Assembly (NCBI GenBank): GCA_047967505.1
Contig: CM106538.1
From: Dipteris shenzhenensis
Lineage: Eukaryota
Reading direction: 5' to 3' (one strand)
DNA: 64,000 nucleotides
The position numbers and the translations under genes are program-made. The notes under the pieces are model-generated. The model worked only from the letters and a program-made list of their open reading frames with translations, was not told the DNA's origin and did no database searches. Positions 12,214 to 40,500 of this stretch are shown one piece after another; position 1 is the first letter of the stretch; each line of letters begins with the position of its first letter.

Positions 12214-12223
12214 TGCTAGGAAC

Positions 12224-12805
12224 TATTAAATTACATGGCACAGTGGAATAGAAACTGAACAAAGAATAGAGAGTACACAACAAATTAGAGAGGAACAAAC
12301 TTTTCCTTCAATACTGATGTAGTACAAATGATGGCTTCGTCCACCCGTGCACTCCCACAGTGGAGCTTAGATGGTGATCTAGACAGATACTAGGTGAAGA
12401 GCTACTAGCTGGAAGATCTGATCTGATTTGAAGTGATCTGATACAATGGACTGGGGAGGTCGCCTCTTTATAGCTATGAGGGCGATAGTCGGATCAACGT
12501 AGTCGGTGGAGTCGACCAGTCGACCTAGTCGGTGGAGCCGACCAATCAACCTAGTCAGTGAAACCGACTAGTCGCCCATGGAATATTCAGGGATTATTCA
12601 GGCCCCAACAAGACTAAGGGGCTCCCGCACAATCACCTTTCTATCATCAACAGTCTCATTGATAGACCTCATTTGACATGCAAGTTAGGATCCATCCATT
12701 GTCTCGGGCTCAGACATGGCTTCTGCTTATATGGGGGCCTTACAACTTGAGCACCTTGGACCACTAGTGGTTACCAGGAGGGTGGGGCATTGAGCATATC
12801 TAACA
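12224..12805 (-). repeat. 3' LTR of the 12224-17335 element
   Basis: TATTAAATTACATGGC...GCATATCTAACA; aligns with 16783-17335 apart from substitutions and two short indels. Confidence 0.93.
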
Positions 12806-12833
12806 CCCCCCTCAATGTCCACCCATAGGTGAA

Positions 12834-15800
12834 CTACCTTCTCGGCCCAATGCTAAGTCTCTCAAGATGACCCTGAAGCTGATCCTTCCCGAGTGCCTTG
12901 GTGAAGATATCTACTCCATTTTGCTTTGTTGTATAGTACACCAATTCCACTATCTCGTCCTCGATCAACAAATCACACACATAGTGATACTGAATCTCTA
13001 TATGTTTTTTGCACACATGAAACACTGGATTTTTAGCAATGGCCATGCAACTTTTATTGTTGCACCTCAACATAGTTGCCTCATGCTCTTGCACTCCCAT
13101 GTGCCATAAGATCCTCCTTAGCCACACTGCTTCAGATGCAGCAAAACATGGTGCCTTGTACTCAGCCTCGGTAGAAGACAATGCCACTGTTGGTTGTTTC
13201 TTATTGATCCAAGAGAAGATACCTGAACCTAAAGAGAAATAATATCTAGAAATTGATTTCTTGGAATGAACATCTCCATCCCAATCTGAGTCATAATGAC
13301 CAGCCAAGGAAGTGCTCGTACCATAGGTGATGCCATAATCAAGAGTGCTCTTCACATACCTGAGCACCGCATCCTTACATTCCAATGATTCTCTCGGGGC
13401 TTATTGGAGAACCTGCTCAAAATGCCAACAGCAAAATTGATGTCCAGTCTGGTGTTGCACAGATAGATGAAACTGCTGACCAACTTCCTATACCTCTCGA
13501 TGTCTCTTGGTGGTGAGGCATCCTCCATAGACAGCCTTGCATTTACCTCCATAGGTGTAGCTATCTCCTTGCACTCAGACATACCAAATGCCTTCAAGAT
13601 CTCCCTTGCATATTTCTACTGAGAAATGAAGATCTTGCTTGGCTCTTGCCAAACTTCAATCCCCAAACAATACTGCATCAAGCCTAAGTTTGTCATCTCC
13701 AACTCTATGCTCAACGCCTTTCTAGTCTACTGGATCATGTCTTCATAGTCACCTATAATAAGGAGATCATCCACATAAAGAACAATAATAGCAGATTTTC
13801 CACCTTTCTTGTACACATACAAGTTAGCATGTGAGGCACATCTTTTGAAGCTTAATTTATGAAAGAATTTATCTATCCATTGGTACCATGCTCTTCGGCT
13901 GTTTCAGCTTCTGTATAGAGCCTTCTTCAGCTTACATACATTGTTCTCAGAATGGGGGGCCTCAAACCTAGGTGGTTGAGCCATGTATGCAACCAATCTG
14001 ACTTTGTGGCCTTGTACTTTACCTTCCAAACCCACTTGGTGCCAATAACCTTTCTGTTAGGTGGTCGATCTACTAGCTCCCAAGTTTCATTCTTCATGAT
14101 GCTATCATATTCTACTTGCATAGCATTTTTCCAATCTCGGTTTGCAAGTGCTTCCTCCAAACTCGCATGCTCCTTTACTTCTGCAATAATCTCAGCCATC
14201 AAGGCCATATTGGCTATGTGAGCAGAAGCCCTCCTTTGCTCCTCGATTCTCTGAGACCACCTTGGTCCATATGCATGCTCCTCAACAGACATAGGCATTT
14301 GGTTATCATGGTCATAGAGCTACCTTACCCATCACAGCAATGGCTTTTCCGGGTGTGTAACAATAGGTTGGTGTCTTATGCCTTCATCATTTGATATTTC
14401 CTCCTCCTTTATAGCTCTTGGTACAAGTCCATAGTGAATTACCTCTTCGCTTGATGATAAAGTGGAAGAGCTCTTCTCTGACTCCACTGCATGTGGGTGC
14501 TCCTCAACACCACATCGCGCCTCGCTATGATCTTCTTTGCCTCTTGGTCATACAACTTATAGGCTTTCTTCTCATCACAATAGCCTAAGAAGATACATTT
14601 GGTGCTTTTTGGTTGTAGCTTGTTTCTCTCTTTGTCTTGTACATGCGCATAGCATTCACACCCAAATGTTCTGAAGTGGGAGACAGATGGCTTCTTACCG
14701 CTGTAAGCCTCATGTGGTGTTTTACCTTTGAGTGCCTTTGTATAGCTACAATTAAGGATGTAAACCATAGTATTGAGAGCCTCAACCCAAAAGTGGTTTG
14801 GCAGTCCACCACCTTTCAACATACACCTCCCCATCTCCATGGTGGTTTGCATTCGGTGTTCAACAACTAAATTTTGCTGAGGCGTATGTGCTGTCATCGT
14901 TTGTCACTTGATCCCTTTGCTCTTGCAAAAATCTCCAAACTCTGTAGAAACAAACTCACCACCACCATCTGATCTGATTTTCTTCACTTTTCTCCCTGTT
15001 TCATTTTCAACAAGCTATAGCCATTCTTTAAATTTACCAAAAGCTTGAGCCTTTTTGCGAAGAAAGTACACCCACATCTTCCTACTATAGTCGTCGACAA
15101 TCAATAAAAAATAAGAAGATCCTCGCAAGGCCTGTGTACGCATCTTATCGCACAAGTCAACATGCACCAACTCTAGAGGAGCGTTTGCTCGATTCTTGCT
15201 TTCTCGTGGGAATGCCTTTCTCTGTTGCTTGCCATCATGCAAGCTTCACATGGTTCTTTGATTTTTGCGACTACAGGTAAGTGAGGAGCCATACCTTGCT
15301 TCTACATCTCCTTCAGCACTGCAAATCTGATGTGGCCGAATCTTTCATGCCAAAGTCTGCTAGTGCCCACTCTAGCAGTGGCTATAACAGCACCTAGCTC
15401 ATACATGTTGTTCCTCCTTACTCCTGTGCCAACAAGATTTCCTGCACTATCCATAATTTTTGCTTCTATCTTGTTGAACCTCACCTCATGGTCAAGGTTA
15501 GTCATGGAAGCGATTGATAGCAAATTTCTCTTGATTTGTGGAACATACAGCACATTAGATAGTTTCTTAACATCTCCATTTACAGAACCTCAATAGGGCA
15601 TTTTGCATTATTACCAACCATCACGGTGATGGGTTCCTATAGAGGCTACATGGAACAATATAGACCCTTCTTGTAGGTCATGTGACGGGAGGCACCACTA
15701 TCCAACACCCATGAATCAGTGGTTGAAGCTTCTTGAACTGAGAAACACTCTTCCTCAATGGCCAGAAATAGATCCAACTCTGCTTTTGCTATGTTAGCTA

Positions 15801-16711
15801 TCTCTTTCCCCTTATCTGTCTTCTTTAGGATACCATTCCTTTCATCTGCTTTCTTGACCTAGCAATCTGCAATCATATGGCCCTTCTTCTTGCAGTAGAA
15901 GCATTCTCCCTGAAACTTCTTCTTGCTGCCCTGCTTCTTTTTGTCACCACTAGTAGAGGACTCACCTTTGGTGGAGGAACTACCTTTTCCTTTCATAGTG
16001 GTAGAGAATATAGCATCCGGATTGCTGCCTCCATCTCGAGCTTTAAGCCTCAATTCCTCCTCCATAAGTAAAGCACAAAACTCCTCAAATGACAATGGTT
16101 GGGGTCTCACCTGAGTATTAAGTGCTGTTACCCATCCATCAAACCTTGGTGGCAATATCCGAAGACACCACCGAGCTAGCTCTTCGCTAGTCTTTTGTAT
16201 CCCAGCACTAGCCATCTGGTCACACAAATTTTTGATTCAGGTTATGAACGCCTCCGCTGTCTCTCCTTCATTAAACTTCTCAGCTGCGAGCTGATTCTCT
16301 AGGTTCTGGATCCTTGTTTGATTTCACATCTCATACTGACTCTTCAATATGTTCCAGGCCACAGTTGCCTTAGATGTATGCTAAATCAAGGTCAAAACAC
16401 TATCGATGAGGGCACACAGAGCATCTGCATTTCCAAGCTCATAGAAGGTCGGCATTAGGAGGTATCATACTCCCTAGATTTGCTGGGTCAGGGGTTCCTT
16501 GTGGTTCTGGGTCAGTCCCTAGTAATGTCTCCAGAAGCTCATATGAATCCAAAAAAGCAGTAATTTTAAACTTCCACAGAGTGTAGTTCGTACCATCTAG
16601 CTTGCCTTCAGTGAAGGCTAGTGGGCGAATCCTCAATGCCTGGATTGTTGGTGTAGTAGCAGCTACTGAACTCAAGCTGCTTCTTGTTGAGCCGCTTCCT
16701 ATTGCCATCAT
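12834..16711 (-). pseudogene. copia gag-pol pseudogene with many stops and frameshifts and an internal RT deletion
   Basis: KLDGTNYTLWKFK, CFYCKKKGHMIADC, WVLDSGASRHM, LWHERFGH, LELVHVDLC, KKQPTVALSSTEAEY, KHIEIQYHYV. Confidence 0.95.
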
Positions 16712-16782
16712 TCCGTATGCTGTTGAAGCCCTCGCCTCTCTTCTATTCTTTGATCCTTAGAGCTGCTTGGGCTTTGATACCA

Positions 16783-17335
16783 TGTTAAATTACATGGCGC
16801 AGCAGAATAGAAACTGAATAAAGAATAGAGAGGAACAAACTTTTCCTTCAATACTGATGTAGTACAGATGATGGCTTCGTCCACCTGTGCGCTCCCACAG
16901 TGGAGCTTAAATGGCGATCTAGACAGATACTAGGTGAAGAGCTACTAGCTGGAAGATTTGATCTGATCTGAACTAATCTAATACAATGGACTAGGGAGGT
17001 CACCTCTTTATAGCTATGAGGGCGGTAGTCGGATCAACATAGTCGGTGGAGTTGACTAATCGACCTAGTTGGTGGAGCCAACCAGTCAACCTAGTCGGTG
17101 GAACCGACTAGTTGTCCGTGGAATATTCAGGGAATATTCAAGCCCCAGCAAGAATAAGAGGCTCCCACACAATCACCTTTCTACCATCAACAGTCTCATT
17201 GATAGACCTCATCTGACATGCCCATCCAGTGTCTCGGGATCACACATGGCTTCTCCTCATATGGGGGCCTTACAACTTCAGCACCTTGGAACACTGGTGG
17301 TTACCAGGAGGGTGGAGCATTGAGCATATCTAACG
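16783..17335 (-). repeat. 5' LTR of the 12224-17335 element
   Basis: TGTTAAATTACATGGC...GCATATCTAACG, adjacent to the PBS. Confidence 0.93.
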
Positions 17336-17925
17336 GGAACAATACTTGGCTATTTGGAGGACCTTGGAGAGAAGTTAGAGCAACTATAGAGTTTGGAACA
17401 TTGCCAACAAGTGTTAAGATGACATGTGGCATCATCTGAGCATCATCTAGAGGTGTTTCAGCAACTGCATGGATTCCCTAGTGCAGAATGGATCTTCAAA
17501 TGCGAGCATGGCATGACTAGGATCTAACCAGGATAGGTGGGACCTTGTTGGGAAACAATATGGGGCCCTTTAGAGCATGCAAACATCCTACCATCTCCCT
17601 GGACTTGCTCTATCCCTGGATCACCCAATATAACTCCCTACCATGCTCTAAAAGCACCCAACTACTTCCCAAATAGGCACCATCTATCTTGGTTAGATCC
17701 TGTTCACGTCGTGCTATCATTCGATGATCCATCTACCCTAGGGAGTCCATGCAAATAGGCAAATGTATCCCGAGTCTATCCTAGTATAGAAGTTGTCTGC
17801 ACAGTTCCTGAAACACCTCTAGATACTACCACATATCATCGCGACACCTGCTGGTAGGGTTCCATTCTCTGTGGTTGCTTTGACTCTTCTCTAAGGTCTT
17901 CCAAATAGCTAGGTATTTTCCCTAG
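17336..17925 (+). repeat. Long imperfect inverted repeat (fold-back); arms about 17336-17579 and 17642-17925
   Basis: Examples: GCTATTTGGA / TCCAAATAGC; TCTAGAGGTGTTTCAG / CTGAAACACCTCTAGA; AGGATCTAACCA / TGGTTAGATCCT; TTTAGAGCATG / CATGCTCTAAA. Confidence 0.9.
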
Positions 17926-18883
17926 TTGTGCTGCCAATATGGCAACCTATGTGCTGCCCATGTGGTAGCCCTATCCTTTGCCTTTTCTATTTGAGTATGT
18001 TTCCCACATGGCAGCCGATGTTCTCCCATGTGGCATCCCAGCAAGCTTAAGTGCACCTCAACCAAGACGGATAGTTGGGGAGCAAACTAAATGGTTGGAA
18101 GCTCCTGGTCCGCCGCCATAATAGACTAGAAGTTGGTTTGCTTTGGGGGGTCCATTCGGGGCTCATAGTTCATCCAGGGGAGCAACCCTTCAGGAGCAGT
18201 TCGAAGAAGCAGAGTAGTAGGTCTTGGGCCATCATCTAGGATGACTAGAGGAGGCTGATTGCTATAGACATAGCTTAGAGGAAGGCTTCACCCTTGGCTA
18301 TCTTCTAGGGTAGCAAGATGCACAGGTCAAAGGGACAAGCACTCCCTTGTGTTCCGGTTGAGCAAGAGGGGCATTGTGAAGGTGTATTTGTGGGCATGAT
18401 AATAAGGCCAACCCGAGCTCTACAGGAGCATGGAGGCTGAGTGTTTAAAAAGTGCCATAGAGGTACGATAACAACATATTTTGTGTATATAGAGGACCAC
18501 ATTTTGGTGGGACTCTAGACTTGTTTTTATATTGTGTCCATCTCTTAGATGGAAATATATGGTCTATTGGTTCTACATCTCTCTCATGAGCATTGTCTAT
18601 TTACTTTCTTGCACATGTATTATTGAGCACACTAAGTAAAGAAAATTTGGATTCCACATAAGCACCACTATGTGAGTTCTTGGGCTACACTATATCTATC
18701 TTCTGCATTGTGTATACCTCTGTTGTGGATTTCACACAATCAAGCTCTCAAACATCTATTTCTTTATTTAATATACACTCTCGAGCTATCACATGTCATC
18801 CTTCTCTTAGTCCAGTCTGGATCAGGTGGCATGATGCTGAATGGGGATGAGGCATTGACACATGTAAGTCAACATTTGAATAG

Positions 18884-19601
18884 GTTTATTAGCTTGCATT
18901 TAGCTCAGTATACAAAGTGATAAGCAAATTTTCTCTCTTAATTGCTAAAGAGCTCAGTACATATATGTTTCACATTTGGTCATTGAAGGTATATGACTTT
19001 GTGGTCATTTGGCCGAACTTAGTTTTTAGATAAATATCAACTTGTTCTTAATTCTAGAAGAGGCTCATTGTCAAAGCATCATCTGCTATCTCGACTTCAT
19101 TACTTGGGGTTAACACTCATTTGAACACACACTTAGTTACTTAGTATGTTGAGCATAGTATTTGAACACACACAATCTTTCAAAACAGATGACCCCAACT
19201 TATAGCAAACGAGTATGAACAAATATGGACAAAACAATTGATGTTTATTAGCTTGCATTTAGCTCGGTATACAAAGTGATAAGCAGATTTTATCTCTTAA
19301 TTGCTAAAGAGCTCAGTACATATATGTTTCACATTTGGTCATTGAAGGTATACGACTTTGTGGTCATTTGGCCGAACTTAGTTTTTAGATAAATATCAAC
19401 TTGTTCTTAATTGTAGAAGAGGCTCATTGTCAAAGCATCATCTGCTATCTTGACTTCATTATTTGGGGGTAACACTCATTTGAACACACACTTAGTTACT
19501 TAGTATGTTGAGCATAGCATTTGAACACACACAATCTTTTAAAACAGATGACCCCAACTTATAGCAAACAAGTATGAACAAATATGGACAAAACAATTGA
19601 T
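18884..19601. repeat. Near-identical tandem duplication, period 359 bp
   Basis: GTTTATTAGCTTGCATTTAGCTC... starts at 18884 and at 19243. Confidence 0.95.
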
Positions 19602-20165: not shown

Positions 20166-21002
20166 TTACTTATCATGTTGTACATTTGATTATAGTGGCT
20201 GTATTTCTCATGCTGAAATTCCAATCATTGGTTGTACGTGTTTGTCTTCTATGTTGGCTGAGATTCTCATGCTATTCATTTGGTTATAGTGGCTGAAATT
20301 CTTGTGCTAGTTATGCCATGGAAATAGAGAGCTATGGAGCCTTTGGTATTTTGTAGTCTATGTCTACCAAGTGTTCAGGTGGATTATCTCCATAGCTCAC
20401 ACATGTAAGTGGCATGTTAGGATTGTTGTTGAAATTTCCTACGGTTGACATTCAGATGCCTGGGCTAAATTTGCTAAATTTATGATTGCTGAAATAGTCT
20501 TGAGGTAGGTACGGAGTTGAGGAGCTATAGGTGGTTTTGTTAGTATTTTCCATGTTGAATTATAGATGTATCACAACAACACAAAGCAACTATAGACGCG
20601 CTTGGTACACACGCAAAATAGCGGGCGTGTCTATAGGCATTGCTTTAGTAGAGAAATTACGGGCGCGTCTACATGCGCATTTAAAAGCTCGTCTATTTGC
20701 GCGTAAATCACCGCGTTTGACCTGAGAAAATACGGGCCCGTCTAATATCCCGTTTATTAGCGCGTCTATTTGCACGTGTATTAGGGCATTTATTTGCGCG
20801 TTTACACTGAGAATTAGACGCGTAAATAGACGTGCTCCAGAGAATACAGAAAGTGAGATTTTGGTGTACATCATTGCTTTCCAAACATTGCCCATGATTA
20901 CCAAAGCACATAATTTTTTACAAGCCCACATATACAAGAATTAAGTGAGATGAGGAGAATGAGACAATATGTAAAATAGTTTTGCCAATATCAATTGTGG
21001 GG

Positions 21003-24000
21003 CTACGGTTCAATCTCATCCTCAATGAGATCAACCCTTGCCAAACTATCTACTTCAAAATCCAAACAAGTGTTTAGATCTACAAATACATTCAACCCAC
21101 TACTACTTGTGCCACTCATGTGCTCATCGAAATCAGCATCTCCAATGGTAGGCTCGTCCTCACGGGTAATGGCCTCAATATCTATATCTCCTATCTCATG
21201 TTCATCCTCCTCTCTTGTATCACGGTCATCATCACGTCCATGGCCATGATCATCCTCCATACGCTCCATATTAGTAAATGTACTATACATCACTTTGGAA
21301 CGTGGCATAATAGGTATGACATGCCACCATCTATTATTATCTACCATTGGTTGATAGACAACCTAATTCAAACACAAATACAATCATGTTACTTTTCTTG
21401 CATCAAATATTTAAAAGCGAGTATTTTTATGTGTGTGCACAATACCTGTTCACATTGTTGCGGTAGTACTAGTGTGTCCTTCCTACTTTGCCAAAACTTT
21501 GTGGAGTCAATAGTTACAAAGCCACTTGCATGGCGTTTGATTGTTGCATTAGGGCCTCTTTCCACCACGTCCTTAAACCACTTTACATCCAAAACATACA
21601 CAAAGAAGCGTCGAAAGTCAAGCATAATGATATCTTGGATTATGCCACAATAACCATCCATGGCTCCATTGGCTCCCTCAAAGCTAGCAATGACGCCGCA
21701 ATCTTGTGTGTTTCTCTTATCATCAATCCGTTGTGTTTGAAAATGCTTGCCCTCACACCATATAGCATTGAACATAGTGCACTACACCAAGAAAAAATTA
21801 ATTAAATAAGCAATCCAAATTATAAAAAGCTCCTAACTTATGCATAACATTCTATATACTGACCTTGCTCATGCATCCCCTAGCATACTCCCATTCTTCC
21901 ATTGTGATATGCATCCCCTCGTTTTTCTCTGCTTTCTCCATTTCATCAAGTAGCCAATCCACATGAATATCCTTTGGAAGTGCTCTTAGATGCTGAGGGT
22001 ATGGCACACGAGATCCGTGGTGTGTACAAAAGAGGGCCCTTTCTTCTTGTCTTCTTGCCTTTGCATCCTCGTATCTTGTCACCCATCTTTTCATCACATC
22101 ACTATAAAGCACGCAAAAGAGGTTGATACTATTATGCAACTCCATGTCTATTACTTTGTTGCATCCTTTTCCTTGAGGCACAATAGAGGTCATCCTTAGG
22201 TCTTCATCATCTCTCCATAGTCGTGGGAGAGAGCTATCCACATCAACAAGAAACTCAGAAATATATACAAGTGACTCTTGTACCAACCAACCCTCGGCCA
22301 TGCTACCTTCGGGTCTTGCATTTTGTCTCAAGAAGCCCTTCAAGGTCTTCATGAAGCGCTCGAGGAAGAACAACCATCGTGCATGTATAGTACCGCATAT
22401 AGCAATCTCATCCACCAAATGTACTATGAGATATAGTTGGCTTGTGAGAATAGAACGTGGAAATGTCTCCTCCACTAAACAAACCGCCTCCACTGACATA
22501 ACTCGAGCATTCTCAAGCGTGGTGGGATCTATTTTCTTTGAGATCACATACCTCACAAGCTCGCCCATCTTGTAAATACAATCTTTCATGTCCTTCGATG
22601 CACTACGTGAAATGCTAGTAGGTAGTATGAACTGAACCCGCGAGGAGGTGGTTGATTAGTTGCTTATAGCTATTCACTCACAAATTTGAAAGGAAAAAGA
22701 TATTATGCATATAAAATACTTACTTGGAGCATCTTGTGCCAATCATGAGATTTCAAGCCATATAATTGCTCTACACCTCTTTTCTTGCTCTTTGTAAAGG
22801 CTCCCTTCAAACACCTCATGCATCCAGTGGGAGTACGAATTGTAGTAATAGCGCGCTTCACCGTCGCCATCTCTAGCTTTGATAACATCCACGGTGCACG
22901 AGGTAAGAAAGCACACCCATTTGATCTCTCTTGAGGCCAAGCTTCATGCATCCTCCCTGTGGTACATAGATCCTCCCTTATGCCTGCCAAATCTCGTGTC
23001 CCATTCAAATGCTCCCAAATGGTAGATGCCACATTCTTGAAGATATGCATGGGATCAAGCAAGTGATTGATCTTGAGGTGGGATCAATATGGTAAACGAT
23101 AAAAGATGGAGTATCTAAACAAAATAAAGTGTTAGTGTGCAATCTTTACTTTCAACCAATATAGCCAATCTTTACTTCTAGTAGTTACAAACCCTTACCG
23201 GCTCATGCCAAGTAGTGGAGGAGTCGTGGAACCGTCCCAAATTCTCATCCAATCTCCCGTGGTGAGAGATTGTGGGAGGACTTCATTCCAAGGGGCAACA
23301 TATCTAGGATGATCAGGTGGGAGAAATCGATGGTGATTCTCATAGATGACCTTATTTAATGCATCTGCCCGTGAGGCAACTAGCGAAGGACCACAAATAG
23401 GACATGCATGGTAACCCGATGTAGTGAGACCTGAACAATAGATGCAATTAAGAGTGGAAGGTGGGTTTAGGGTGCCACGTCCTTTGCCTATTCATAATTA
23501 AAAAATGCAATGCTTACCTGAACACTCGCCATAGCCTGGGAATTCATGCATCGTCCACATCAAGACTGCTTTGCAGTTGAAGTCTCATGACGAGGGAGGC
23601 TTGCTCACATCATGCACCTCGATACCTCTCCAAAGTATCTCTAGCTCATCAATCAAAGGCTCCAAATAAACATCAGGGTTTTTGACTTTATGTTTCCCTA
23701 GAATTAGAAGGGACAGCATGACATGTCCTTTCTTAATAGCCATAGAGGGTGGAAGATTGTAATTCACCAATACCACTGGCCATACACTGTAAGACGTGCT
23801 TTTGAGACCAAATGGGTTCACACCGTCCATACCCAATCCAAGTCTCAAGCTCCTAGGTTCTTCCTTGAAGCTTGGCCATGTGTCTTCAATATGCTTCCAT
23901 GCAGGAGAGTCCGCGAGAGTTCTCCACTTGCCATCGGTTGATCGATGGGAGGAATGCCATGACATGAGCTCTGCAATAGATTTGCACTTGAACATATGTT

Positions 24001-24976
24001 GGATGCGAGGGATTATGGGAAAATGTCGCAATACCTTACAAGGCATGTCCAAGGTTTTGAGATCTTCTCTATATCTTGCCTCTCCACAAGTAGGACACTC
24101 TCTTGCATCCTTATGTAGTCCACGAAACAAAATGCAATCGTTGACACATGCATGGATGCGCTTGTAATCTAATCCTCCAAGAGAGGTCACATGTTGCCTT
24201 GCCATATCTCTTGAGGTCGGTAATTTATTCTCCCTTGGAAGCATTTTACACAATAGCCTGCACGTGAAGACCATAAATGAGGAAAAGCATTCGAGTAATT
24301 GACCCACTAGCATAATTCACCATGTTTGCAAAATCGACTTTAAAGCTTACTTGAGTAATGCATTCAAACTTGCATTGCTCCATCCATAGATGGTTTGCAA
24401 GTTTAGTAACTCAAGGGAGGCACGTAGAACAGAGAATGTGCACCCCTCAAACAGTGGAGTCGATGCTACGGTAAAAAGATCATCCTACTCCATGGTATTA
24501 TCCCTCCCTTGATGGACATATAAATCCCGCACCATATCATCAAACACCTCCTCCTCCATGGCTTCATGAGGTAATGGTGGAGGGCTACTATCACCATCAC
24601 TCCATGCATCTGTAACGGTCCCTCCTGAAGATCCCACCTCATATCACCGACGCTTCGCCTCCTCACGACGGGCATAGGGTAACATGTGCGGGTGTGGCAC
24701 TGCATCCTATATCAAATTAAAACGGGATCATAACTCAAACATATGAACACCCATAGGTATCTCAATCAACCTTAACTTACAAACCCTTACCCTGTTTACG
24801 GTCACATCCCATTCTCCATACTTTGAGATATGATTGAGTGTAATCCTGCATGCACGATACATGTTTTCTCGACATCGATCACATAGACATTTGATTTTTT
24901 GCTCCAACCACATTTCGCGATGGTGGATACGAAGGGATTCATCCTCACTGGAGCTACTTGTTGAAGATGGAGACAT
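21003..24976 (-). pseudogene. CACTA transposase (TnpD/Tnp2-like), 8 predicted exons, inactivated by nonsense changes
   Basis: Motifs IHACVNDCILF, CPTCGEARY, LRHFPIIPR, DSPAWKHI, LGLGMDGVNPF, YNLPP, DVYLEPLIDEL, LDPMHIFKNV, GLKSHDWH, HLVDE, FLERFMKTLK, PEGSMAEG. Predicted exons 24976-24791, 24706-24351, 24257-23518, 23430-23199, 23114-22724, 22631-21864, 21781-21446, 21362-21003, all with GT-AG introns of about 80-95 bp. In-frame TGA at about 23585 and about 23085. Confidence 0.93.
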
Positions 24977-25044
24977 CCTACAAACAAACAACCCACCAAA
25001 TTTGCTCTTCTTCAAATGTTTAATTTAAACTCTGTGTTGCATCT

Positions 25045-25630
25045 ATCGCTGCGTCTATGGTCGCGTCTAACATCGCGTCTAACGGCGCATCTACTCTGTG
25101 TATTTAGACGTGCCTATAGACACGCTAATAGATGTGACTATAGACGTGGCTTTTAAACCTACTTTTCGGCGTGCCGCTCGCTTTGCTTTTCTTTACATTA
25201 CTTAAACTTCACGCGCGGATTCCTTCCTTCTTTATTAGCAAATCCTTAGATTCGAAGCTTAAGAGAGAGCCTCCCATACTTACTTCCAAGCTTTCACTCA
25301 AGAGAAAGGGACCGTACCTACACTTACTTCTAAGCTTAAAGGAGAGGAGGATGAACAAGGAGAAGAAGCAAGTTTGGAAAAGAAAGAAGAACCTTTCATA
25401 CCTTTATCCAAGTAAGACTTTTTGAAGTTGATCTTGTTTGGAAGTTTGCTCTCTCTAGTTTTGTACTTTCTCGCGCGTCTGGCTTGTTGCAGACACACAG
25501 ACGCGTCTATAGATGCTCTGTTAGACGCTCTGTTAAACGCACTGTTAAACGCTCTGTTAAATGCTCTGTTAGATGCTTTGTTAGACGCGTCTATAGACAT
25601 GCAAATCAGATGGGTCTATAGATGCGCTCT
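25045..25630. promoter_or_regulatory. Putative bidirectional promoter flanked by two clusters of the element's subterminal motif (TAGACGCG / CGCGTCTA)
   Basis: Clusters at about 25045-25150 and 25470-25625 lie between the divergent start codons at 24976(-) and 25708(+). Promoter function is inferred. Confidence 0.55.
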
Positions 25631-25707
25631 GATAGTAAGCGTCTCTTTTCTTCCCCTTTCTTCTCAGCTCATCAATAATATATTTTTTTCCTTTTTTCCA
25701 GTTCAAC

Positions 25708-27170
25708 ATGTGGCTAGGAAGTGCTTCTAGCTCACCTGATCCCCGGGAATCTATTTGGAAGGACTTATATAACATTTTAGGGCACCCTCCTAGTCCTGCG
25801 GAGTTATACGGGTATATGATAGGTACTCTTAACACTCCCCAGGAGTCGGCACTACAGACTCCAAGCCACCCCACACCGCCTGAGATCACCCCAGTGGAGT
25901 CAGCACAACCGTCTTATGCCCCTTCTTATGCCCCTTCCCTCGTACCGTCTTATGCCCCTTCCCCCATGCCGTCTTATGTCCCTTCTGCCATCCCGTCTTA
26001 TGCCCCTTCCCCCATGCCGTCAGGAGGTCCTTCTGTCTCGGCGAGCCATCGACGTACTCCCCAGTCGTCGAGACTCGGTTCTCCAGCTACGAGTGGTCAG
26101 CGTAGTCCCGTGCAGTCCCCAGCTACAAGTGGCCAGCGTACGAGCTCGACATGATAGGGTAGCAGGCGTAGTAGCAGGGAGAGCGGTGGGGGATGCATGG
26201 CACAGTGCTTTGGGCCATGTGGCGGTGAGGAGGATGATGATTCAGATGATTTAGACACGCCTCTGGGTGATGGTACGATTTATTATGACATCACTCAGAC
26301 AGGAGGCATCTTGATGGATGCGCGGGGAAAGGACATCATGGCCTTCATGCGCTCTGTAATTGCTAACAATTACAGAGATTGCTTTATCCACTATAAAGAC
26401 CACCCAAAGAGGTTGGCTGATGAGACCCTCGCTACTGTTCGCTCTAGGTATCCTAACCCCCCCAATCGCCAGTTCACAGATAAATGGGGGAAGTCAAAGA
26501 TTGTTACGATACTTAGCAATAAAAGATCTTTGCTTAAGAGGCAGGCACTAGCGGAGCTTGCCAGGCTTGAGGCAGGTCAACCACCAAGGGGCCCGCCCCA
26601 CACCACTCACAAGCGTGAGTGGAAGAAGGCAATGAAGTCAGCGAGGGAGGACCCCAGTCTGTAGCACGTGGAGGCACAGAGGATCCAGATGGAGAAATAT
26701 GGAAGCACGCATTTTGGAGCAGGGGGTGTTGAATCATGGGAGGCCCAATTTGTAAGTATCGATCTCAAATTATATTGCTTATGTAGTTTATTAGGAGGTT
26801 GGTTGTTTCTTTGTACTAATCCCTCCACAAAGTGTGTTGCGGTCATGCAGCTTGAGATCGTGGGCAGATACCCTACTCCAGTGGAGATAGCCTACCACCA
26901 CCACCATCGCAAAGGAGATACATGGAGGCACTTCTATGATGACGGGTTGATTACTAAGGAGCAGTATACCCGAGCTACTGGAGCGGCCCCCCAGGTAATT
27001 GAAAGTAATTAAATAATGCCAAAATTATAAGTAAAGATTTGATTTTTCATACATTGATATATGTTGTCCCTTGTTTACAGGCCCATGCACAAGACGACGA
27101 GGAAGACGAGGAAGGAGGCACAGAAGGGAGCGTAGAAGGGAGCGTGGAAGGCACAGAGGATTGGTCGTAG
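25708..27170 (+). pseudogene. CACTA ORF2 (accessory gene), 3 predicted exons, Pro/Ser-rich N-terminus and acidic C-terminus
   Basis: One frame 25708-26751 broken by TGA (26152) and TAG (26662); introns 26752-26850 and 26995-27080 (GT-AG); last exon AHAQDDEEDEEGG...WS*. PSYA repeats at about 25910-26020. Confidence 0.8.
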
Positions 27171-27868
27171 AAGTAGTGCTAGCTACTCTTTTTTGTACTT
27201 AAAGCCATTGGCTTGGCTTCGTGCCTCTTGTATATAGACTCTTATTTTTTGTACTTGAAGCCACATGACATGGCTTAGCTTCCTTATTTTTTGTACTTGA
27301 AGCCACATGATGTGGCTTAGCTTTGTGCTATATGTATATACAAGCACTTTTTGAGCTTTTAATTTTATTGCGTTTTGGAGTTGTAATATTTTATTTGGAA
27401 TTGTAATTAAAATGCGGTTGGCTGTAAGAATTGAATTACAGAATGTGGATATGGGATTCTTGTAACTATATAGCATACACAACATACACAGTATTTTGTA
27501 AAATTAAAAAAAAAAAAGCGTGTCTATCCGTGCGTTTAAAAATGCATTTATATTCGTGTCTGTCTGTTCAACTTGTGTCTATATGTGCGTCTATAAACGC
27601 ATTTATAAGTGCATCTATTTATGCATCTAACTGTGCGTCTATACGCACGTGAGTCTGATATATAGACGCGCAATTAGGCGCGCCCGTAAGTTTTTTATTT
27701 AGTTCATGAAACGTGTCTGTGCGCGCGTCTATGGGTGCTTTGTCTTGTTGTGTATAATGTTGTCTATTATGTCTATTATGTGGCCATATTGAAAATAGAT
27801 TCAGTTATGTTTGGGAGCTATGGAGCTATCGGTTCATAGTATGAGGGTATGATGGTAGCATGGCTTTC

Positions 27869-27872: not shown

Positions 27873-27914
<42 letters not shown>
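27873..27914. repeat. (CT)n microsatellite
   Basis: Directly visible. Confidence 0.97.
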
Positions 27915-27917
<3 letters not shown>

Positions 27918-28390: not shown

Positions 28391-29115
28391 TGTAAGAAAA
28401 CAATACAACGTCTGTGCTCAACAGATAACAGGATCTTGTACACAAGACAGAAAACCAGATAGTATGGAGAATAAAAAATTTGATTACTGTAGATTTGATA
28501 CAATTGATGGCACTGCCTCCCAACCATGCGCTCCTGTGAAAGAAGCTTCGATGGCAAGATGGAAATAGTAGAGGACAGAGGCTAGATGCTAAGGAATCAG
28601 GGTTGCTATAGCCAGTGATGAAATGGGCTTCATAGGCTCACTCTTATATAGCCACTAATCATAGTCAGTTGGACCCAATTGGGTGACCGACCTAGTCTAC
28701 CCAAAATGGTCGACTGGGGGTCAGTCTTGAAATAGGCCACCGACCACACGATAGAACCGTGGCGTAAAATAGAGCAACTAACCTACGGGCTCTGTTCGGC
28801 CCACAGCCATCCGGGATCAACTAGGACTCCAAACGGGCCCCGCAACTTGAGAGTGGGTTGCCCCGAGAAATGCTCTGTCTACCCTCAATGCAGTCAGTCA
28901 TGGGATGCCTTCCCACACTTGCATGTAGCCTAGTTGGAAGTGTGCCAACTCCGTCCAGCCATCAGCAGGCCACAGATGGCCCCCATCTAGTGTCCGAACC
29001 AAGACCTACCGGATAACCGAGCTACTCAAATGCCTTCTCCTCATATGGGGGGCTTACAAGTAGAGTTAGTTGGTTCTCGCGTAGTTACACGAGAGTGGAG
29101 CATTGATATCTAACA
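28391..29115 (-). repeat. 3' LTR (725 bp)
   Basis: Aligns end to end with 40501-41224, with many transition differences. Confidence 0.95.
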
Positions 29116-29145
29116 CCACCCCTCAATGTCCACTCGCAAGTAAAC

Positions 29146-31276
29146 TTACTTTTTTGGTCCAATGCCAAGTCGATGAAGATGCCTCTCTAGCCAGTCTCTT
29201 CCAAGAGCCTTCATGAAGATGTCCGTAGCATTCTCTGTAGTCGGACAGTACACCAAGTTGTTGACCTCTCCATCCATGATGAGCTCACGTACAAAGTGAT
29301 ATTGAATCTCAATGTGTTTTGTACGAGTGTGGAACATAGGCTTCTTTGCAATCGCCATGCAACTCTGATTGTCACATGATAACTGCGTAGGCTTGTTCAG
29401 GCTTGTTCTGCACTGCACCCATGTCCCCAAAAGTCCTCCTCAACCACACTGCCTCGCAAGAAGCAAAGCAAGCTGATTTGTACTTAGCCTCAGTAGAAGA
29501 AAGAGCAACTGTGGGTTGCTTCTTATTGACCCATGACATAGCTCCAGATCCAAGTGAGAAGTAGTACAACCTGTCACTGATCTCTTGCTGTCCACATCTC
29601 CTACCCAATCCGAGTCACAGAATCTGGTCAAGATGTTGCCCTTGGTATAGGTGATGCCATAATCAAGTGTGCCTTTGATGTATTTCAGCATCTGCATCCC
29701 TACCCTCCAATGGTTCTCCCGGGGCTTATTGCAACACCTGCTTAGTACACCAGTCACAAAGCTTATGTCTGGCCATGTGTCACACAAGTAAATCAAACTG
29801 CCCACAAGCCTTTTGTACTTCATTTCGTCCACCAGTGGTGATGAATCCTCGTTTGAGAGCTTCACGTCAACCTCCATAGGGGTACCAACTGTCTTGCACT
29901 CAGCCATGCCAAATGTCTTTAGTATCTCTCCAGCATACTTCAGCTGTGAAATGAAGATCTGTTTCGGCTCTTGCCAAACTTCAATCCCCAAACAGAAATG
30001 CATCAGCGAGGTCTGTCATTTCAAACTCTCTTCCTAGCAAATGCTTTGTCTACGAGATCTTATCTTCATGGTTCCTTGTTATGACAAGGTCATCCACATA
30101 AAGGACCACGATCATACATCTGCCTCCTCCTCTGAAGATATATAAATGTGCATCTGATGGGCTCCTCCTGAACCCATTTTGCAGAAAGTAGGCATCAATC
30201 CACTGGTACCACGCTCGTGGGGCCTATTTTAGCCCGTAAAGTGCCTTCTTCAGTTTACAGACTTTACCTTCTTCTGAACCGGCGATCACAAAACCTGGTG
30301 GTTGTTCCACATATACCTCCTCCTTGAGATCCCCATTCAAAAAGGCAGATTTTACATCCATTTGAAACACGGGCCAACTTCCCTGGGTAGCTAAAGCCAA
30401 AACACTGCGAATTGTGGTTAGTCGAGCTGTGGGAGCAAAAGCATCCTGATAATCAAAACCATGTACCTATGCAAATCCTTTTGTCACGAGCTGAGCCTTG
30501 TACTTATCCAACATGCCATCGGACTTCTACATGGTCTTGTACACCCACTTGGTGCCGATTACCTTACGTTTTGGTGGACGATCCACAAGGTCCCAAGTGT
30601 TATTCATTATGGAGCCATACTTCGACTGCATAGCCTCCATCCACCTATCATCACCCTGTGCCTCTTCAAAGACACTTGGGTTCATCAACACAGATCACCT
30701 CAGTCATTAAAGCATAGTTGACCAAGTGTTCTTGCACCCTTCTTTGCTCCTCTAATCTCTCGAGCCGGCGGTGTTCGGATGGTTCCTCCTCAATGGTTGG
30801 AGGTTCTCTACCATCCAAAAGCTACTTTACCCACTTCAGGAATGGCCGTTGCCATTGTGGTTCTGCAGGCTCTTCTTCATCTTCTTTATCTTGAATCCTC
30901 TGAAGCACCATTGGGGGAGTTTGGTCTACTGTTGGTGGTGGTACTGGATGGATATCCTGGTCCTGATTGTATGGGAAGGAAGCATCCTCCTCCAATTGAT
31001 GTGGCTGTTTTGAGAGGACCACATCGCGACTTACTATTACCTTCTTGGTAACAGGGTTATAGAGACAGTAACCCTTCGCCTCTTCACTGTAGCCCAAGAA
31101 AATACACTTTCGGCTCTTCCGTTCCCATTTGGTCCTGTTAGCATCAGGGACATGCACAAAACAGTCACATCCAAAAACTCTGAAATGTGCAGCTGAGGGT
31201 TTCTTACCAGAAAAGGCCTGCAGTGGAGGCCTGCAGTGGAGGGTTTCTTACTAGAAAAGGCCTGCAGTGGAGGCAT
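29146..31276 (-). pseudogene. copia pol, 3' part (integrase C-terminus, RT, RNase H)
   Basis: KSRKCIFLGYSEEAKGY, QMDVKSAFLNG, LYVDD, FCDSDWVGD, KKQPTVALSSTEAKY, RTKHIEIQYHFVRE. Confidence 0.95.
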
Positions 31277-31532
31277 TGTTGAGAGTTCACGCTCAACATC
31301 ATGTGATCATGTGTGCATAGCACCATCACGTGATCATATGTGCATAGCACTAACCTTATAGAGTGCTATAAAGGAAAGGGTTAGATCCCCTAACCTAACC
31401 CTAAAAGGGTTTGTATATATTCTATTTTTTCAACTAATTCTAGTGTACAGTTAGTCATTTGTGGTGTGCTCTCTAGCTGTGCCCTCTCTCCTCATCTCCA
31501 CTCTTCTCCTCTCCCCTCTTCATATTTTGTCA
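31277..31532 (+). repeat. 5' LTR (256 bp)
   Basis: TG...CA ends, TATA-like CTATAAAG, followed directly by the PBS. Confidence 0.97.
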
Positions 31533-32619
31533 TGGTATCAGAGCTCCCTTGTCTTCCGCTGAGACATTGAGTTTCTTGAGAGTGTGAGAGAGATTGTGAG
31601 ATTGAGAGTTCTCTTGAGTGATTGTGAGATCTTTCCCTTCACTTCCGTTGAGAGAAATTTCCGTCATTGAGAAGAAATTTCCGTCCATTATTCTTTCTTT
31701 GAGTTCATTCTTGAGAGATTTTAGTTCCTTCTCTTGAGTGTTTCTTATTCCGTGAGAGAGAGAGACCTCTGAGTGTTCATTGAAAGCTTCAAGAGCTATT
31801 ACTGTGTGAAAGAGATAGGGTGAGAAAGAAAGGTTTTAGTCTCATTCTCAGAGAAAGAGATAGAGAGGTGTCTCAAGAGAGTTTGAGAGTGTTTTCTTTT
31901 TCAAGAGAAGCCCAGCAACAACCAAGGCTCCATCGACAAGATATTGTGGGCTACAACGAACGCAGGCTACTGCACCGACAGACCTCCTTCTACGCGGCTG
32001 CGACCACGGTTGCACACTCCAGCAACGAAGCGTCTCCTAGTTGGTACCCGCGAGCGGACCTCCATAGTCTTCTACGACTTCCAAGCCTCTTCACCGGCTC
32101 CTACGCTACCTGCGCTCCAGACCACTTCACAAAGCGGCTCTCGTTGCACCAGCGACTCCTAAGCTCCATCAACGACGAGCGCCCACGAGCAAGCATCTCC
32201 AAGCCTCACGCCTCGAATGGCTCCGCAGCTAGCCTCACGCCTCGAACACGCAGCTAGCCACACATCTCGTACAGCGAAGCTCTAGCGCTTAGCGCTCTCG
32301 TACAATGGGGGTCCAGCGCAAGAGTTCGCAAGAGTTCCGTGTCCATCCCTCCTTCAAGTGAGCATCTTCGGAGAACTGCGAACATCGAAGCTTCAGATTT
32401 GAGCGTGGACGGAGCTCACCCAGCCACGACAGCGAAAGCCCTTCTTCCCAGAGCCCAGCTGCCACCACGAATGTGAAAGCCAAGCGTCTAGCAACCTCGC
32501 AACATCGAACGAGCGCCTCCAAACGCGCACATTCCCGTTTCCAAAGCTCCATCGACGGAGAAGACGACGGAATCTAGAAGATTCCGTCCGAATCTTTCTA
32601 GATTCTGGCTTCCCACAGC

Positions 32620-33125
32620 GTGACACGTGGCCCGTGCGCCATGTCATCTAATCTGCCACGTGTCAACCTTATCTGCCACGTGTCAATCCTATCTGCCACG
32701 TCAGCACTGCCACATCATCTGCCACATCAGCAGTGCCACGTAAGTAGGCCACGTCATCACTGACTGCCACATCAGCACCGACTGCCACATCACCTGCCAC
32801 GTCATCAGTGACACATCATCAGCCACGTCACCTGCCACATCATCAGTGACACATCATCAGCCACGTCACCTGTCACGTCATCAGTGACACGTCATCAGGC
32901 CACGTCATCTGCCATGTCATCTGGCCACGTCATCTGCCACGTCATCTACCACGTCACTTGTGCCACGTCATCTGTGCCACGTCATCATTGCCACGTCATC
33001 AGTGCCATGTCATCAGTGACACCTCAGCACTGCCACCTCAGCACAGAGCTTCACTGGCACACCTCTTGCTAAGCACAGTGCCACATCATCACTGCATGTG
33101 ACTCACAGTGACACATCATCATTGA
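32620..33125 (+). repeat. Dense array of TGCCACGTCA(TC)-type 10-13-bp units (G-box/ACGT-core) in the retrotransposon leader
   Basis: Dozens of GCCACGTCA, GCCACATCA and GACACGTCA units; an equivalent array lies at about 61180-61640. Confidence 0.9.
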
Positions 33126-33903
33126 GCACCATTTGCACTCCTTTTGCCCCTCCACCTAGATCAAGTCATATCTCTTGATCCAGGAAGAATTTGAGGGTGC
33201 TCCAAAAAGGAAAGTCGCTCGATTTTTTGTGCTCTATGCGCTCGTTACATCATGCGCACATTTCGGTGCAAGTTACACTCACATTTGAGCCTCGCCGACA
33301 AAACCACTTCCTTCATGCACATTTGCCTCTACATCGACGCATCTGACCCAGCACTTAAAAGGAACAAAGGAAAAGGAATTATTTGCTGCTCTTTCATCGA
33401 TCGACGGTTGGTTTAGATCTAGATCAGAGTAGACTAGATCGCCATAGAGGGGACGCTTTGAATTCCCCAAGTTGCCAATCTAAGCCATGCCCGAAATTCC
33501 CGACTAGTACCTACTCGGAGTCAGTCCATACGCTCACATCCGATTTCACATCATTACATTACCTGAAACCTTACGTTCATCAGTTCAGTGAGCAGACTTC
33601 AGAGTTCAGAGGCATTGCAGATTGATTCAGTGGGCAGATAGCACTTGATTTCACACACACATGCCACCATTGTAAAGCCTATTTGGCTATCTCACGGCAT
33701 CGTGCACATCATTTTTCAGCCTTGTAAAGCCTCTTGGCTATTCCCGGCATCATTGCCACAAGCCTTGTAACACAGGTCAGATCTTATTTACTGCAGTTCT
33801 ATCTTCACCGACGGTACAGAGATTTCACTTGGCATCTTCAGTGTATTTGCAGTTGATTCATACAGAGTTTTCCAGGACACTTTTTGAGTACATTGTTTGC
33901 ACC

Positions 33904-36900
33904 ATGTCGACTAGCAACCTCAATCTGGAGGCATCTGCTAAGTTAGACAACTCCAATTACGGTACATGGAAATACCGAATGGAGACCATTCTTGTGCTTC
34001 AGGACAAATGGGAGTATGTTGATGGATCCATACCTAGACCATTGGCAGATCCAGCCACCAGTAGCTCTACTCCATCTGTTGTCACAGCACCAGCAACGGG
34101 ATCTACATCGGGATCTACATCTACACAAACAGTTTCCGCATCAGTAGCAGATCCTGCCATTGCCCGAGCTCAAGCAGAATGGGATAAGAAAGACAAGTAT
34201 GCCTATCACCTGATCAAGCAGAATGTGCAAGATGTCATGCTAGGACAGCTCAACACAGTCAAGACATCAAAAGAAGCATGGGATATGTTCACAGCTCTCT
34301 ACGAGTCCAAGAACACATCCAGGATTCTCACCTTGAGAAACCAGATCAACCAGAGTTTCCGCAATAGCAATGAAACCGGTCATGCTTATGTACTCCGCAT
34401 CAAAGACTACAACAATCAACTTGCAGCAGCAGGAGAAACTATGAATCCCGCAAAAATGGTTCAAGTAATCCTGAATGGACTAGGAGAAGGATATGAGAAT
34501 CTGGTCCAGAGTATTGCCATCCAATGACAAATTCCAACAGTTGAAGAACTTCAGTCAGTTCTACTTGGTGAAGAACTCAGGACTCAGGCCATTCAAGCAC
34601 GTAAAGGTCATTCTAATGATCAGGCATTCACAGCTTCAGACAGAAGCAGAGGCAAAGGCAGAAACAGAGGTAAATCATATCAGAAAAGTGGTCAAAATCA
34701 AAGTCAGAATCAGCATCAGCATCAGCAGCATCCTCAGCAACATCAAAATCAGCAAAGAGGAAATCATTCCAACAGAGGAAGATTCCAAGGACGAGGGAAT
34801 GCATCCACCAATGTGTCAAACATTCAATGCAACTATTGTCACAAGTTTGGACACTATGAAAGAGATTGTCGCAAGAAGCAGTATGACCAAGGCGGTCAAT
34901 CCAGCAGTAATCGAGGGAATTCCCAAGGAAGAGGAAATCATCGTGGTGGACATTCTAGTCACAGTCATTTTGCAAATGAACATGGAAATATGTTTCTTGC
35001 AAGTGAGGAATTGCATCAGACTGATACAATGCACCTAGACACTGATTTCAATCCCAAAGAAGATTTCAGCTATCAAGTCGACCAAGTGGAACAGGATCCT
35101 TGGTACATCGACAGCGGTGCATCATCTCATATGACAAAATGGTTTACAGAAATGCAGCCATTAGAAGGTCAAAAGAATGTCATCTATACAGCAGACAATA
35201 CACCGAATCCGGTTCAAGGGACAGGTGTTATCCCTATGAACAATTTCACTGGTACAAAAGGATTAGTCAAAGATGTGCTCTATGTTCCGAAGCTCAGTAA
35301 GAACCTTTTGTCAGTAGGTCAAATGACGGAACACAACTACAAAGTCATCTTCGATGGTGATGAATGCACTATCAGAGACAAATCCAAAAGAGGTCAGCTA
35401 GTAGCAAAAGGTGTCAAGGAAGGACGCTTATACAGGATGCTAGCTATGGTACCAGATAAGCATGCCATGTCAGCTCAAATGCAACAGATGCCACTATCTG
35501 CAAAATGGCACAAGAGATATGGTCATGTCAACTTCAAGTACTTGTTAGATCTCAGGAATCAGAATATGGCAATTGGGATTCCGAAGCTACAGTTTCTTGG
35601 AAAGGTTTGTGAAGCATGCTGCTTCGGCAAACAAAAGCGAACCAACTTTGTCAGAAGTACCTCTCGTGCACGAGGTATTCTTGATTTAATTCATACAGAT
35701 GTATGGGGTTATGCCCAGACCCGCAGCATCAATGGTTCACTTTATTACTTGACCTTCATCGACGACTACAGCAGATATTGTTGGGTCTACTTTCTGAAAG
35801 AGAAATTTGAAGTGTTTGCCAGATTTCAAGAATTCAAAGCCATGGTAGAAAACCAAACAGGCAGAAAGATTAAGGTCATGAGATCAGATAGAGGAGGTGA
35901 ATACATGTCTTCAGCCTTCATGAACTTTTGCAAAACTCACGGCATTCGAAGACAATTCACATGTGCAGATACTCCTCAGCAAAATGCAATAGCTGAAAGG
36001 AAGAATGGGACTTTAGCAGATAGTGCTAGAGCAATGCTTAGTGAAAAGCATCTTCTGAATCAGTATTGGGTAGAAGCAATAGCTACAGCTAACTACTTGC
36101 TTAATCGGCTTCCTACCGAACCGATACAAGGAATGACTCCTTATGAAGCATTCATTGGACACAAGCCATGCATTGGGCATCTCCGCATATTCGGTTGCAT
36201 AGCATATGCTCACATACATGATGATCATCGCAGGAAATTGGATGCGAAGTCACGCAAATGCATCATGGTTGGCTACAGTGAAGAAAGTAAAGCATACAAA
36301 TTGTATGATCCCATCAACCGCAAAGTCATTATCTCCAGAGATGTAATCTTCGATGAGGAATCAGAATGGAAAACCTCACCTACACAGGAGATAGAAGCAT
36401 CGACTTCACAGTCATCTACAGAACAGGTTGATGAAGAAGAGCAAGAATTGCCAGCAACACCCCAATCAGCGTCACAGCAGCTCAGACGGTCTACTAGGGA
36501 AAGCAGACCACCAGCCAGATTGACATATGCTCAGAAAGGCAAAGCAATTCAGGTGGAAACCACCAACTATGCTCTTATGACTACCATCGTGGCTACAGAA
36601 GAGCCAGTGTACTTCGAAGACGCAGTAGATAAGCCAGAATGGCAAACTGCAATGAATGAAGAAATGGATGCTTTGTATAAAAATAACACTTGGGAATTAT
36701 GCGACCTTCCACCAGGAAAGAAGGCCATAGCCAACAAATGGGTATACAAAGTGAAGTACAATCCAGATGGCAGTATTCAGAGATACAAAGCCAGATTAGT
36801 TGCAAAAGGATTTGCACAACAATATGGCCAAGATTATGATGAGACTTATGCTCCAGTAGCAAAGATGGATACCATACGGTTCTTGATATCACTAGCGACA

Positions 36901-38151: not shown

Positions 38152-38239
38152 TGGAATGTAATGCTCAGTCCTTCTTCGATTCCCCAGAATCATCATCTTG
38201 AGGGAAGGCCTACTTCATGATGTTGATCTTGAGGGAAGG

Positions 38240-40430: not shown

Positions 40431-40500
40431 CTCTCACAATCTGCTTGCAAATAGAAACACACTACCAAATCTTATTGCTAGAGTCCAGGCTCTGATACCA

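Follow-up and report, generated by a model that had tools for sequence, protein, structure and literature searches.

The 64,000-nucleotide stretch of Dipteris shenzhenensis DNA analyzed here (contig CM106538.1 of assembly GCA_047967505.1; referred to as the window) harbors at positions 20572-27752 a 7,181-bp (~7.2 kb) element, which we assign with considerable confidence to the En/Spm (CACTA) superfamily of transposons and whose ends read CACAA...TTGTG. The element is framed by terminal inverted repeats (TIRs) as well as a target site duplication (TSD). It carries a TNP2-type transposase pseudogene on the minus strand (21003-24976), a second, divergently oriented open reading frame (ORF2; 25708-27012, plus strand) and arrays of a short motif next to both ends and between the two genes.

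The two TIR arms comprise 30 nt each (20572-20601 on the plus strand and 27723-27752 on the minus strand), and alignment paired 27 of the 30 positions (90% complementary). The left arm begins CACAACAACACAAAGCA, and on the minus strand the right arm reads CACAACAAGACAAAGCA. In the inward direction, each arm opens with CACAACAA, has C or G next and continues with ACAAAGCA. Given the base composition of the window, approximately 2.4e-4 inverted 30-nt pairs with at least 27 matches are expected by chance among pairs up to 20 kb apart. The arms are directly flanked by identical copies of TAT (20569-20571 and 27753-27755), and the chance probability of such a 3-bp duplication is 0.018. The next base outward differs between the two sides (T vs. 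A); therefore, the inverted repeat ends exactly at CAC and the TSD is 3 bp long. The first-pass annotation had placed a transposon with CACAA at both tips, a TAT duplication and a CACTA transposase at 20572-27752. These coordinates turned out to be exact, and the three features, the transposase being of the TNP2 type, were borne out.

A 17-nt tip pattern allowing up to three mismatches matched three times in the window, at the two ends and at an unrelated site with three mismatches (37948). Comparison of the tip pattern, the flanks and the whole element yielded neither a second copy of the element nor an empty site within the 64 kb. The flanks share no sequence with the element, and no paralogue of either occurs in the window. 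Among the CACTA and CACTG pairs with a TSD in the window, none reached 10 of 12 TIR matches (0/24 and 0/9, respectively). Other CAC..GTG pairs with a 3-bp TSD were rejected as termini, as their ends either match over no more than ~12 nt or belong to copies of larger repeats: the pair 896/8844 diverges after ~8 nt, matching of the pairs 25295/31740 and 27487/37906 stops after 12-13 nt, and the partners of site 42794 are three copies of a larger repeat in which the outside flanks are identical as well.

Transposase gene and its relatives

The minus-strand gene was delimited by Pfam, tblastn and splice sites. Pfam Transposase_21 matched at 23585-24316 (E 5.9e-38, 130.7 bits, cut-off 28.6) and DUF4218 at 21852-22655 (E 1.8e-23, 83 bits, cut-off 27), both on the minus strand. 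In a tblastn search with the 1135-aa relative P0010, ~900 residues aligned to the gene, interrupted by six gaps of 78-100 nt, each flanked by canonical GT...AG, and the gene therefore possesses at least six short introns. Two nonsense codons are located inside well-aligned exons, a TGA at 23585-23587 and a TGA at 23084-23086, the latter in place of the Trp of a conserved PYW. Four more in-frame stops occur in the N-terminal ~500 nt (24480-24976), which did not align to P0010; these stops may be intronic.

We further inspected the positions that we take to be those of the D-D-E, C(2)C and H(3-4)H residues. The first D (GAC, first base 23827) and the last E (GAG, first base 22361) are both kept, and CxxC is present in ...ACPICG. 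In the WTxxDFP motif, the Asp of which is presumably the second catalytic Asp, the window transposase has Glu (GAA, 23543-23545) as opposed to Asp in all 99 relatives whose motif was located by a regular expression (21 of 120 gave no match). Similarly, Tyr takes the place of the first His in the HxxxH motif that lies upstream of the catalytic Glu, a position occupied by His in 30 of the 31 relatives in which this motif was found; the remaining 89 of the 120, many of them truncated, gave no match. Catalytic D-D-E residues together with C(2)C and H(3-4)H motifs are named for the superfamily in PMC12730594. The altered catalytic D and His would fit a decayed copy and would be uninformative about the family. 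Judged from its sequence, the transposase gene of this copy is dead.

Of the 1529 candidates from a search with a 243-aa core of the transposase, 729 were relatives at E<=0.001, and the identities and the tree given in the following are based on the 120 best longer proteins found with this core. Among these, the nearest named relatives were hypothetical proteins of Adiantum nelumboides (57-62% identity over the 243-aa N-terminal core), followed by those of the liverwort Riccia sorocarpa (52-53%), and angiosperm proteins reached at most 50% identity to the core. In a quick IQ-TREE phylogeny of 121 rows (window and 120 relatives; 235 columns, LG+G4, SH-aLRT support only, no bootstrap), the window transposase was placed within a 12-row set together with six Adiantum and five unnamed rows (support 99), and a branch with support 99 separated it from all 54 named angiosperm rows. 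The TNP2-like relatives from A. nelumboides in this clade (P0003, P0006-P0009 and P0011) are predicted proteins and were compared at the protein level.

When bacterial and archaeal assemblies were scanned, five plant-like transposase loci with 37-44% identity to that of the window were obtained. No CAC..GTG pair with a TSD was recognizable at any of the five, and they are uninformative on the fern clade. The locus with 44% identity lies on contig LFMX01000071.1 of Candidatus Burkholderia humilis UZHbot5, an obligate leaf-nodule symbiont, where a plant-type CACTA transposase (10001-10681) is situated in a ~12-kb AT-rich stretch (~6000-18000, GC 0.32-0.48) between GC-rich, Burkholderia-like flanks (GC 0.52-0.65). 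The stretch results either from chimeric assembly or contamination by the host, or the symbiont genome itself contains plant DNA; a CAC..GTG pair with a TSD was not found within it. TNP2 fragments with 37-43% identity occur on short contigs of a Bacteroidaceae metagenome-assembled genome (MAG), a Sideroxydans MAG, Dechloromonas sp. H13 and Bradyrhizobium iriomotense, and these are likely plant DNA contamination.

ORF2 and the 12-bp-period motif arrays

ORF2 is a single frame of ~430 codons that is interrupted by three stops, a TGA-TAG at 26152-26157 and a TAG at 26662-26664; one intron probably follows ...FVSI. Its aligned relatives read through the stop positions of this copy. The N-terminus of the product is rich in Pro/Ser, and the C-terminal domain is helical and contains a conserved YPNP...W...NKRS motif. 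A 24-nt unit present 4.1 times at 25924-26021 encodes PSYAPS-like Pro/Ser repeats in the N-terminus.

To find relatives, 1.84 billion representative proteins were scanned by HMMER with the central 168 residues of ORF2 as query, which returned 30 proteins at E<=1e-3; of these, 11 reached E<=1e-10 and none reached E<=1e-30. Common to the aligned relatives are the Pro/Ser-rich N-terminus, a stretch resembling CCFGGGG and the YPNP...W...NKRS core. A word-indexed protein search gave no match with the single ORF2 sequence and eight matches, none of them named, with the ORF2 profile. AlphaFold2 modeling from a 21-row alignment resulted in a mostly helical structure with a mean predicted local distance difference test (pLDDT) score of 86 and values above 90 for residues 40-168. 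The best ESM Atlas score was 0.85, below the guide value of 0.9, and a profile search of PDB sequences with ORF2 gave a best E of 0.17. One relative, P0124, displayed a sub-threshold match to HTH_70 (19.7 bits vs. a cut-off of 27). ORF2 is thus a member of a small family that is unannotated. Neither ORF2 nor 17 relatives contained Pfam Transposase_24 or TNP1, which would have marked a TnpA/TNP1-related second product; this criterion carries little weight, as proteins of this type are known not to be homologous from one family to another (PMC2613891).

The 9-mer GCGCGTCTA, allowing up to one mismatch, matched 27 times in the window, in which 2.36 matches are expected, and all 27 are located inside the element: nine in the first 265 nt, eleven in the center, one in ORF2 and six in the last 240 nt. 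Correspondingly, the core CGTCTA reaches a density of 2.79 per kb within the element and of 0.12 per kb outside it (23x). Tandem Repeats Finder identified a period of 12 in the left, central and right arrays, most clearly at 25510-25588 (6.6 units, 88% matches). The left subterminal array (20593-20835; 9 of 27 matches) contains the motif in both orientations, with period-12 arrays at 20739-20804, and the right subterminal array (27514-27731; 6 of 27 matches) has a period of 12 or 24 at 27578-27643. The subterminal regions are dense in short direct and inverted repeats, a feature by which the superfamily is recognized.

The central matches form two clusters (25061-25125 and 25473-25627) in the ~680-bp intergenic region between the divergent genes. 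Central array A (25039-25148; period 12 at 25061-25093) is located upstream of the transposase ATG at a distance of 63-172 nt, and central array B (25473-25627; 6.6 tandem 12-bp units) upstream of the ORF2 ATG at a distance of 81-235 nt. The two arrays are roughly mutually inverted (71-80% complementary). They were rejected as buried termini, as they share only motif-level matches of 9-16 nt with the ends, and a search of the inside of the element at up to three mismatches did not reveal any sequence resembling the tip CACAACAA. In addition, a 42-nt unit is tandemly duplicated (95% matches) at 27241-27323 in the right non-coding part of the element.

Origin of the termini, alternative readings and surroundings

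Taken together, the locus is in all probability a 7,181-bp En/Spm (CACTA) transposon with its nearest named relatives in ferns, which was inserted by a cut-and-paste mechanism generating the TAT duplication, subsequently decayed and has authentic CACAA...TTGTG termini. Judged from domains and structure, the superfamily assignment is secure and not in doubt. The element has the 5'-CAC...GTG-3' termini and the 3-bp TSD by which the superfamily is defined in Repbase style (PMC12730594); the plant textbook definition names a TIR starting with CACTA or CACTG (PMC10741241), and here both ends are CACAA. As both genes contain nonsense codons and Glu replaces the second catalytic Asp, this copy is unable to move by itself.

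By analogy to En/Spm, a TNP2-type DDE transposase would recognize and cut the element at the CAC tips, and an element-encoded protein would bind the 12-bp-period motifs in the ~250 bp inside each end and join the ends. Binding of subterminal repeats by a second, family-specific protein is stated as a proposal in PMC2613891. The ORF2 product would be the sole candidate for such a protein in this element. Transposase and ORF2 would be transcribed divergently from the central region, and central arrays A and B, each situated upstream of one of the two start codons, may serve as autoregulatory binding sites, so that the same protein would regulate both genes.

Compared with CACTA, an identical T-to-A transversion is present at position 4 in both arms. 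In contrast, all five stops (TGA and TGA in the transposase gene, TGA-TAG and TAG in ORF2) are one transition away from a sense codon, which fits deamination decay. As the recognizable decay consists of transition-type stops whereas the identical transversion is found at both ends, CACAA is best explained as inherited, and the intact TSD indicates that the element was inserted with its ends at exactly these positions. The copy that transposed to this site thus very probably carried CACAA at both ends. The first-pass annotation had considered the change a family trait and not decay. By this argument inheritance is indeed far more likely, and the conclusion is drawn from a single copy.

That only one copy was seen would also fit a wider family ending in CACTA, with CACAA marking a private sublineage or one master copy that could still be mobilized. 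Position 4 is changeable in related systems, which renders such polymorphism within a family plausible. We regard this as unlikely but as the strongest of the alternatives: the change is present at both ends, so the copy mobilized here had both, and the data give no indication of CACTA-ended relatives.

Less probable again is an origin of the element by head-to-head fusion of a transposase-bearing and an ORF2-bearing half-element, which would turn the central arrays into relics of former subterminal regions. The central arrays do resemble the subterminal ones in motif, period and mixed orientation and are mutually inverted, and tandem Pack-CACTA insertions that were re-mobilized as one unit are described in PMC8903248. 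However, the element is devoid of an internal CACAACAA tip at up to three mismatches, similarity between ends and center does not exceed the motif level (9-16 nt), and the two central arrays precede their respective start codons by similar distances, in keeping with a regulatory function.

Very little speaks for an insertion with CACTA ends followed by T-to-A decay at both tips. The copy is old, as seen from 3 of 30 differences between the arms and five stop codons, but we estimate the same change in both arms at ~(0.05/3)^2, i.e., ~3e-4, assuming ~5% change per arm and one specific transversion out of three possible changes, and all five stops are of the transition type. Least credible of all are misplaced boundaries with the 30-nt inverted repeat internal to a larger element with canonical ends, for which no supporting point was found. 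All 27 motif matches stop at the present boundaries, the flanks share no sequence with the element, no CACTA or CACTG pair in the window has both a TSD and at least 10 of 12 TIR matches, and the TSD abuts exactly on the CAC tips.

Several observations weigh against the reading of the locus as a fern-type element with inherited CACAA ends and ORF2 as its end-binding protein. The window contains no second copy, and the tip state is known from a single element. The Glu at the second catalytic position requires a transversion, and therefore not every change in this copy fits simple deamination decay. The quick tree comprised 235 columns without bootstraps and included 59 unnamed rows; the terminal branch of the window transposase is long (0.55), as expected for a pseudogene, and the label 'fern-type' depends on six proteins from one species. 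With regard to ORF2, its pairing with the transposase was seen in this one element, and its role in end binding is suggested by its position alone. No DNA-binding domain was detected in ORF2, no Pfam family was found above the cut-off in its pieces or in the 17 relatives, and a Foldseek search of the ORF2 model against PDB gave 0 matches at E<=0.001.

The region around the element is rich in transposons, and no host gene was recognized. Ty1/copia fragments (gag, integrase, reverse transcriptase) surround the element at 6797-9248, 13927-14903, 29440-31247 and 38565-39774, all on the minus strand. A further Ty1/copia retrotransposon is located at 33676-38151 (plus strand), consisting of a gag frame (33676-34527) and a pol frame (34528-37548) with 1006 open codons encoding a protease-like beta-barrel, integrase and RVT_2. 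It lies within 28391-40800 and is flanked by 300-nt direct repeats at 28391 and 40501 (91% identical), which may be the long terminal repeats of an older element hosting the nested Ty1/copia. The region 45776-63677 is occupied by a large repeat in two to three copies with 94-100% identity and start-to-start spacings of ~8.2 kb and ~6.1 kb, representing either a segmental or tandem duplication of recent date or long repeats nested in one another; the open reading frames within it had no Pfam match. Closer to the element, two tandem copies of a 359-nt unit (97% identity) are found at 18884-19542, ~1 kb upstream, and a perfect (CT)21 microsatellite at 27873-27915, 120 nt beyond the right end. An Rfam search of the whole window gave no match.

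Comparison with known elements and consequences for annotation

Like En/Spm of maize and Tam1 of Antirrhinum, the element has a 3-bp TSD, short TIRs and a TNP2-type transposase. According to PMC3193017, almost all CACTA elements carry CACTA outermost, and its Table 2 gives CACTACAAGAAAA as the tip of En1 and CACTACAACAAAA as that of Tam1. Among the first 13 nt, 11 are identical between En1 and the right tip and likewise between Tam1 and the left tip, with differences at positions 4 and 11 in each case and agreement of both elements with ours at positions 1-3 and 5-10 (PMC3193017, Table 2). In contrast to En1 and Tam1, position 4 of the tip is A and not T. The period of 12 in the subterminal motif is shared with En-1, the motif of which is described as 12 bp long (PMC2613891).

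Unlike in En/Spm and Tam1, the sequence of the subterminal motif is unrelated to theirs, and no similarity links the second gene to the Pfam families of TnpA/TNP1. The layout also differs from that of En/Spm, which is a single transcription unit, and from that of Tgmt*, as the second gene is located on the opposite strand and extra motif arrays occur in the center. In Tgmt* of soybean both functions are reported to reside in one large gene, and TNPA of En-1 and TNP1 of Tam1 to have little similarity to each other (PMC2613891). Jozin and other Chenopodium CACTA elements are alike in having TIRs, subterminal units of 10-20 bp in both orientations and a central Transposase_21 frame; they were preselected for an intact CACTA motif, a filter that the present element would fail (PMC8978399).

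Two other memberships were considered and rejected. PIF/Harbinger elements have a TWA-type 3-bp TSD and a DDE_Tnp_4 transposase; here the TSD is TAT, and Transposase_21 was the only transposase domain found. Transib elements generate 5-bp TSDs; the TSD of the present element has 3 bp, its transposase is TNP2-type and not RAG1-like, and its tip shares only CACAA with Transib. In Transib and the recombination signal sequence (RSS), only CAC at positions 1-3 is universally conserved, the Transib consensus being CACAATG and the RSS heptamer CACAGTG (PMC1131882). The first five bases of the Transib consensus are identical to the tip of our element, a five-base likeness that is possibly a coincidence.

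A 2025 survey by a Repbase curator characterizes EnSpm by 5'-CAC..GTG-3' termini and a 3-bp TSD, and the wider CMCT clade as mostly having only CA..TG in common (PMC12730594). The element agrees with Repbase-style EnSpm (CMC/CMCT) in termini and TSD; the survey treats fungal families, not CACAA-ended plant elements. Animal members of the superfamily may even start with CCC and have 2-bp duplications (PMC4298943). Since only CAC is universal in Transib and RSS and EnSpm is delimited by CAC..GTG (as given in PMC1131882 and PMC12730594), the change at position 4 lies within the known tolerance of the superfamily.

For plants, an annotation primer names CACTA or CACTG as the typical feature (PMC10741241). 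The statement of the first-pass annotation that plant elements are described as ending in CACTA or CACTG is thus supported by this primer and by Table 2 of PMC3193017. 'Plant En/Spm' as the comparison group is overstated, as the nearest named relatives are from ferns and the set in that table is from angiosperms. Filtering on the motif by structural finders, also put forward in the first-pass annotation, applies to some: the Chenopodium study demanded 'an intact CACTA motif' a priori (PMC8978399), and packFinder was seeded with CACTACAA (PMC8903248). Procedures that start from the motif would therefore miss the present element. That annotation would miss the lineage is overstated: it holds for motif-first procedures and not for homology searches, in which the transposase reveals the element at once, or for the Repbase-style criterion of CAC..GTG and TSD (PMC12730594).

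In the literature searched, which did not cover Repbase and Dfam, we found no CACTA element described with CACAA ends. Among the matches listed, those pairing CACTA with CACAA were primer or RSS coincidences, and a search combining CACAA with TIR, TSD and transposase gave nothing on En/Spm; 'CACTA' does not occur in the main text of the EDTA benchmark paper. A comparable rule, CACT[A/G], is applied by TIR-Learner. What was found is a modest variant, as variation of the terminal motif is already accepted at the superfamily level. Of further interest besides the tip are the divergent arrangement of two genes with motif arrays between them and the ORF2 family, which is unannotated.

Structure-first TIR finders and manual protocols requiring CACTA or CACTG would skip or misfile CACAA elements, and the gap would be worst for derivatives without transposase, which are beyond rescue by homology. 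Ferns have large genomes, the DNA transposons of which are poorly curated. In other respects, the tip is conserved between this fern-type element and the maize and snapdragon elements, and the clean change at position 4 therefore suggests that the transposase does not need this base, in parallel to Transib/RAG (PMC1131882, PMC3193017). We tentatively propose that ferns, and perhaps other non-seed plants, may possess an En/Spm clade with CACAA...TTGTG tips, a divergently oriented pair of transposase and accessory protein and a central control region studded with the 12-bp motif of the ends. If so, position 4 of CACTA would not be a constant of the superfamily in plants, fern annotations filtering on CACTA would under-count a class of elements, and the ORF2 family would represent a new type of TnpA-like end-binding protein.

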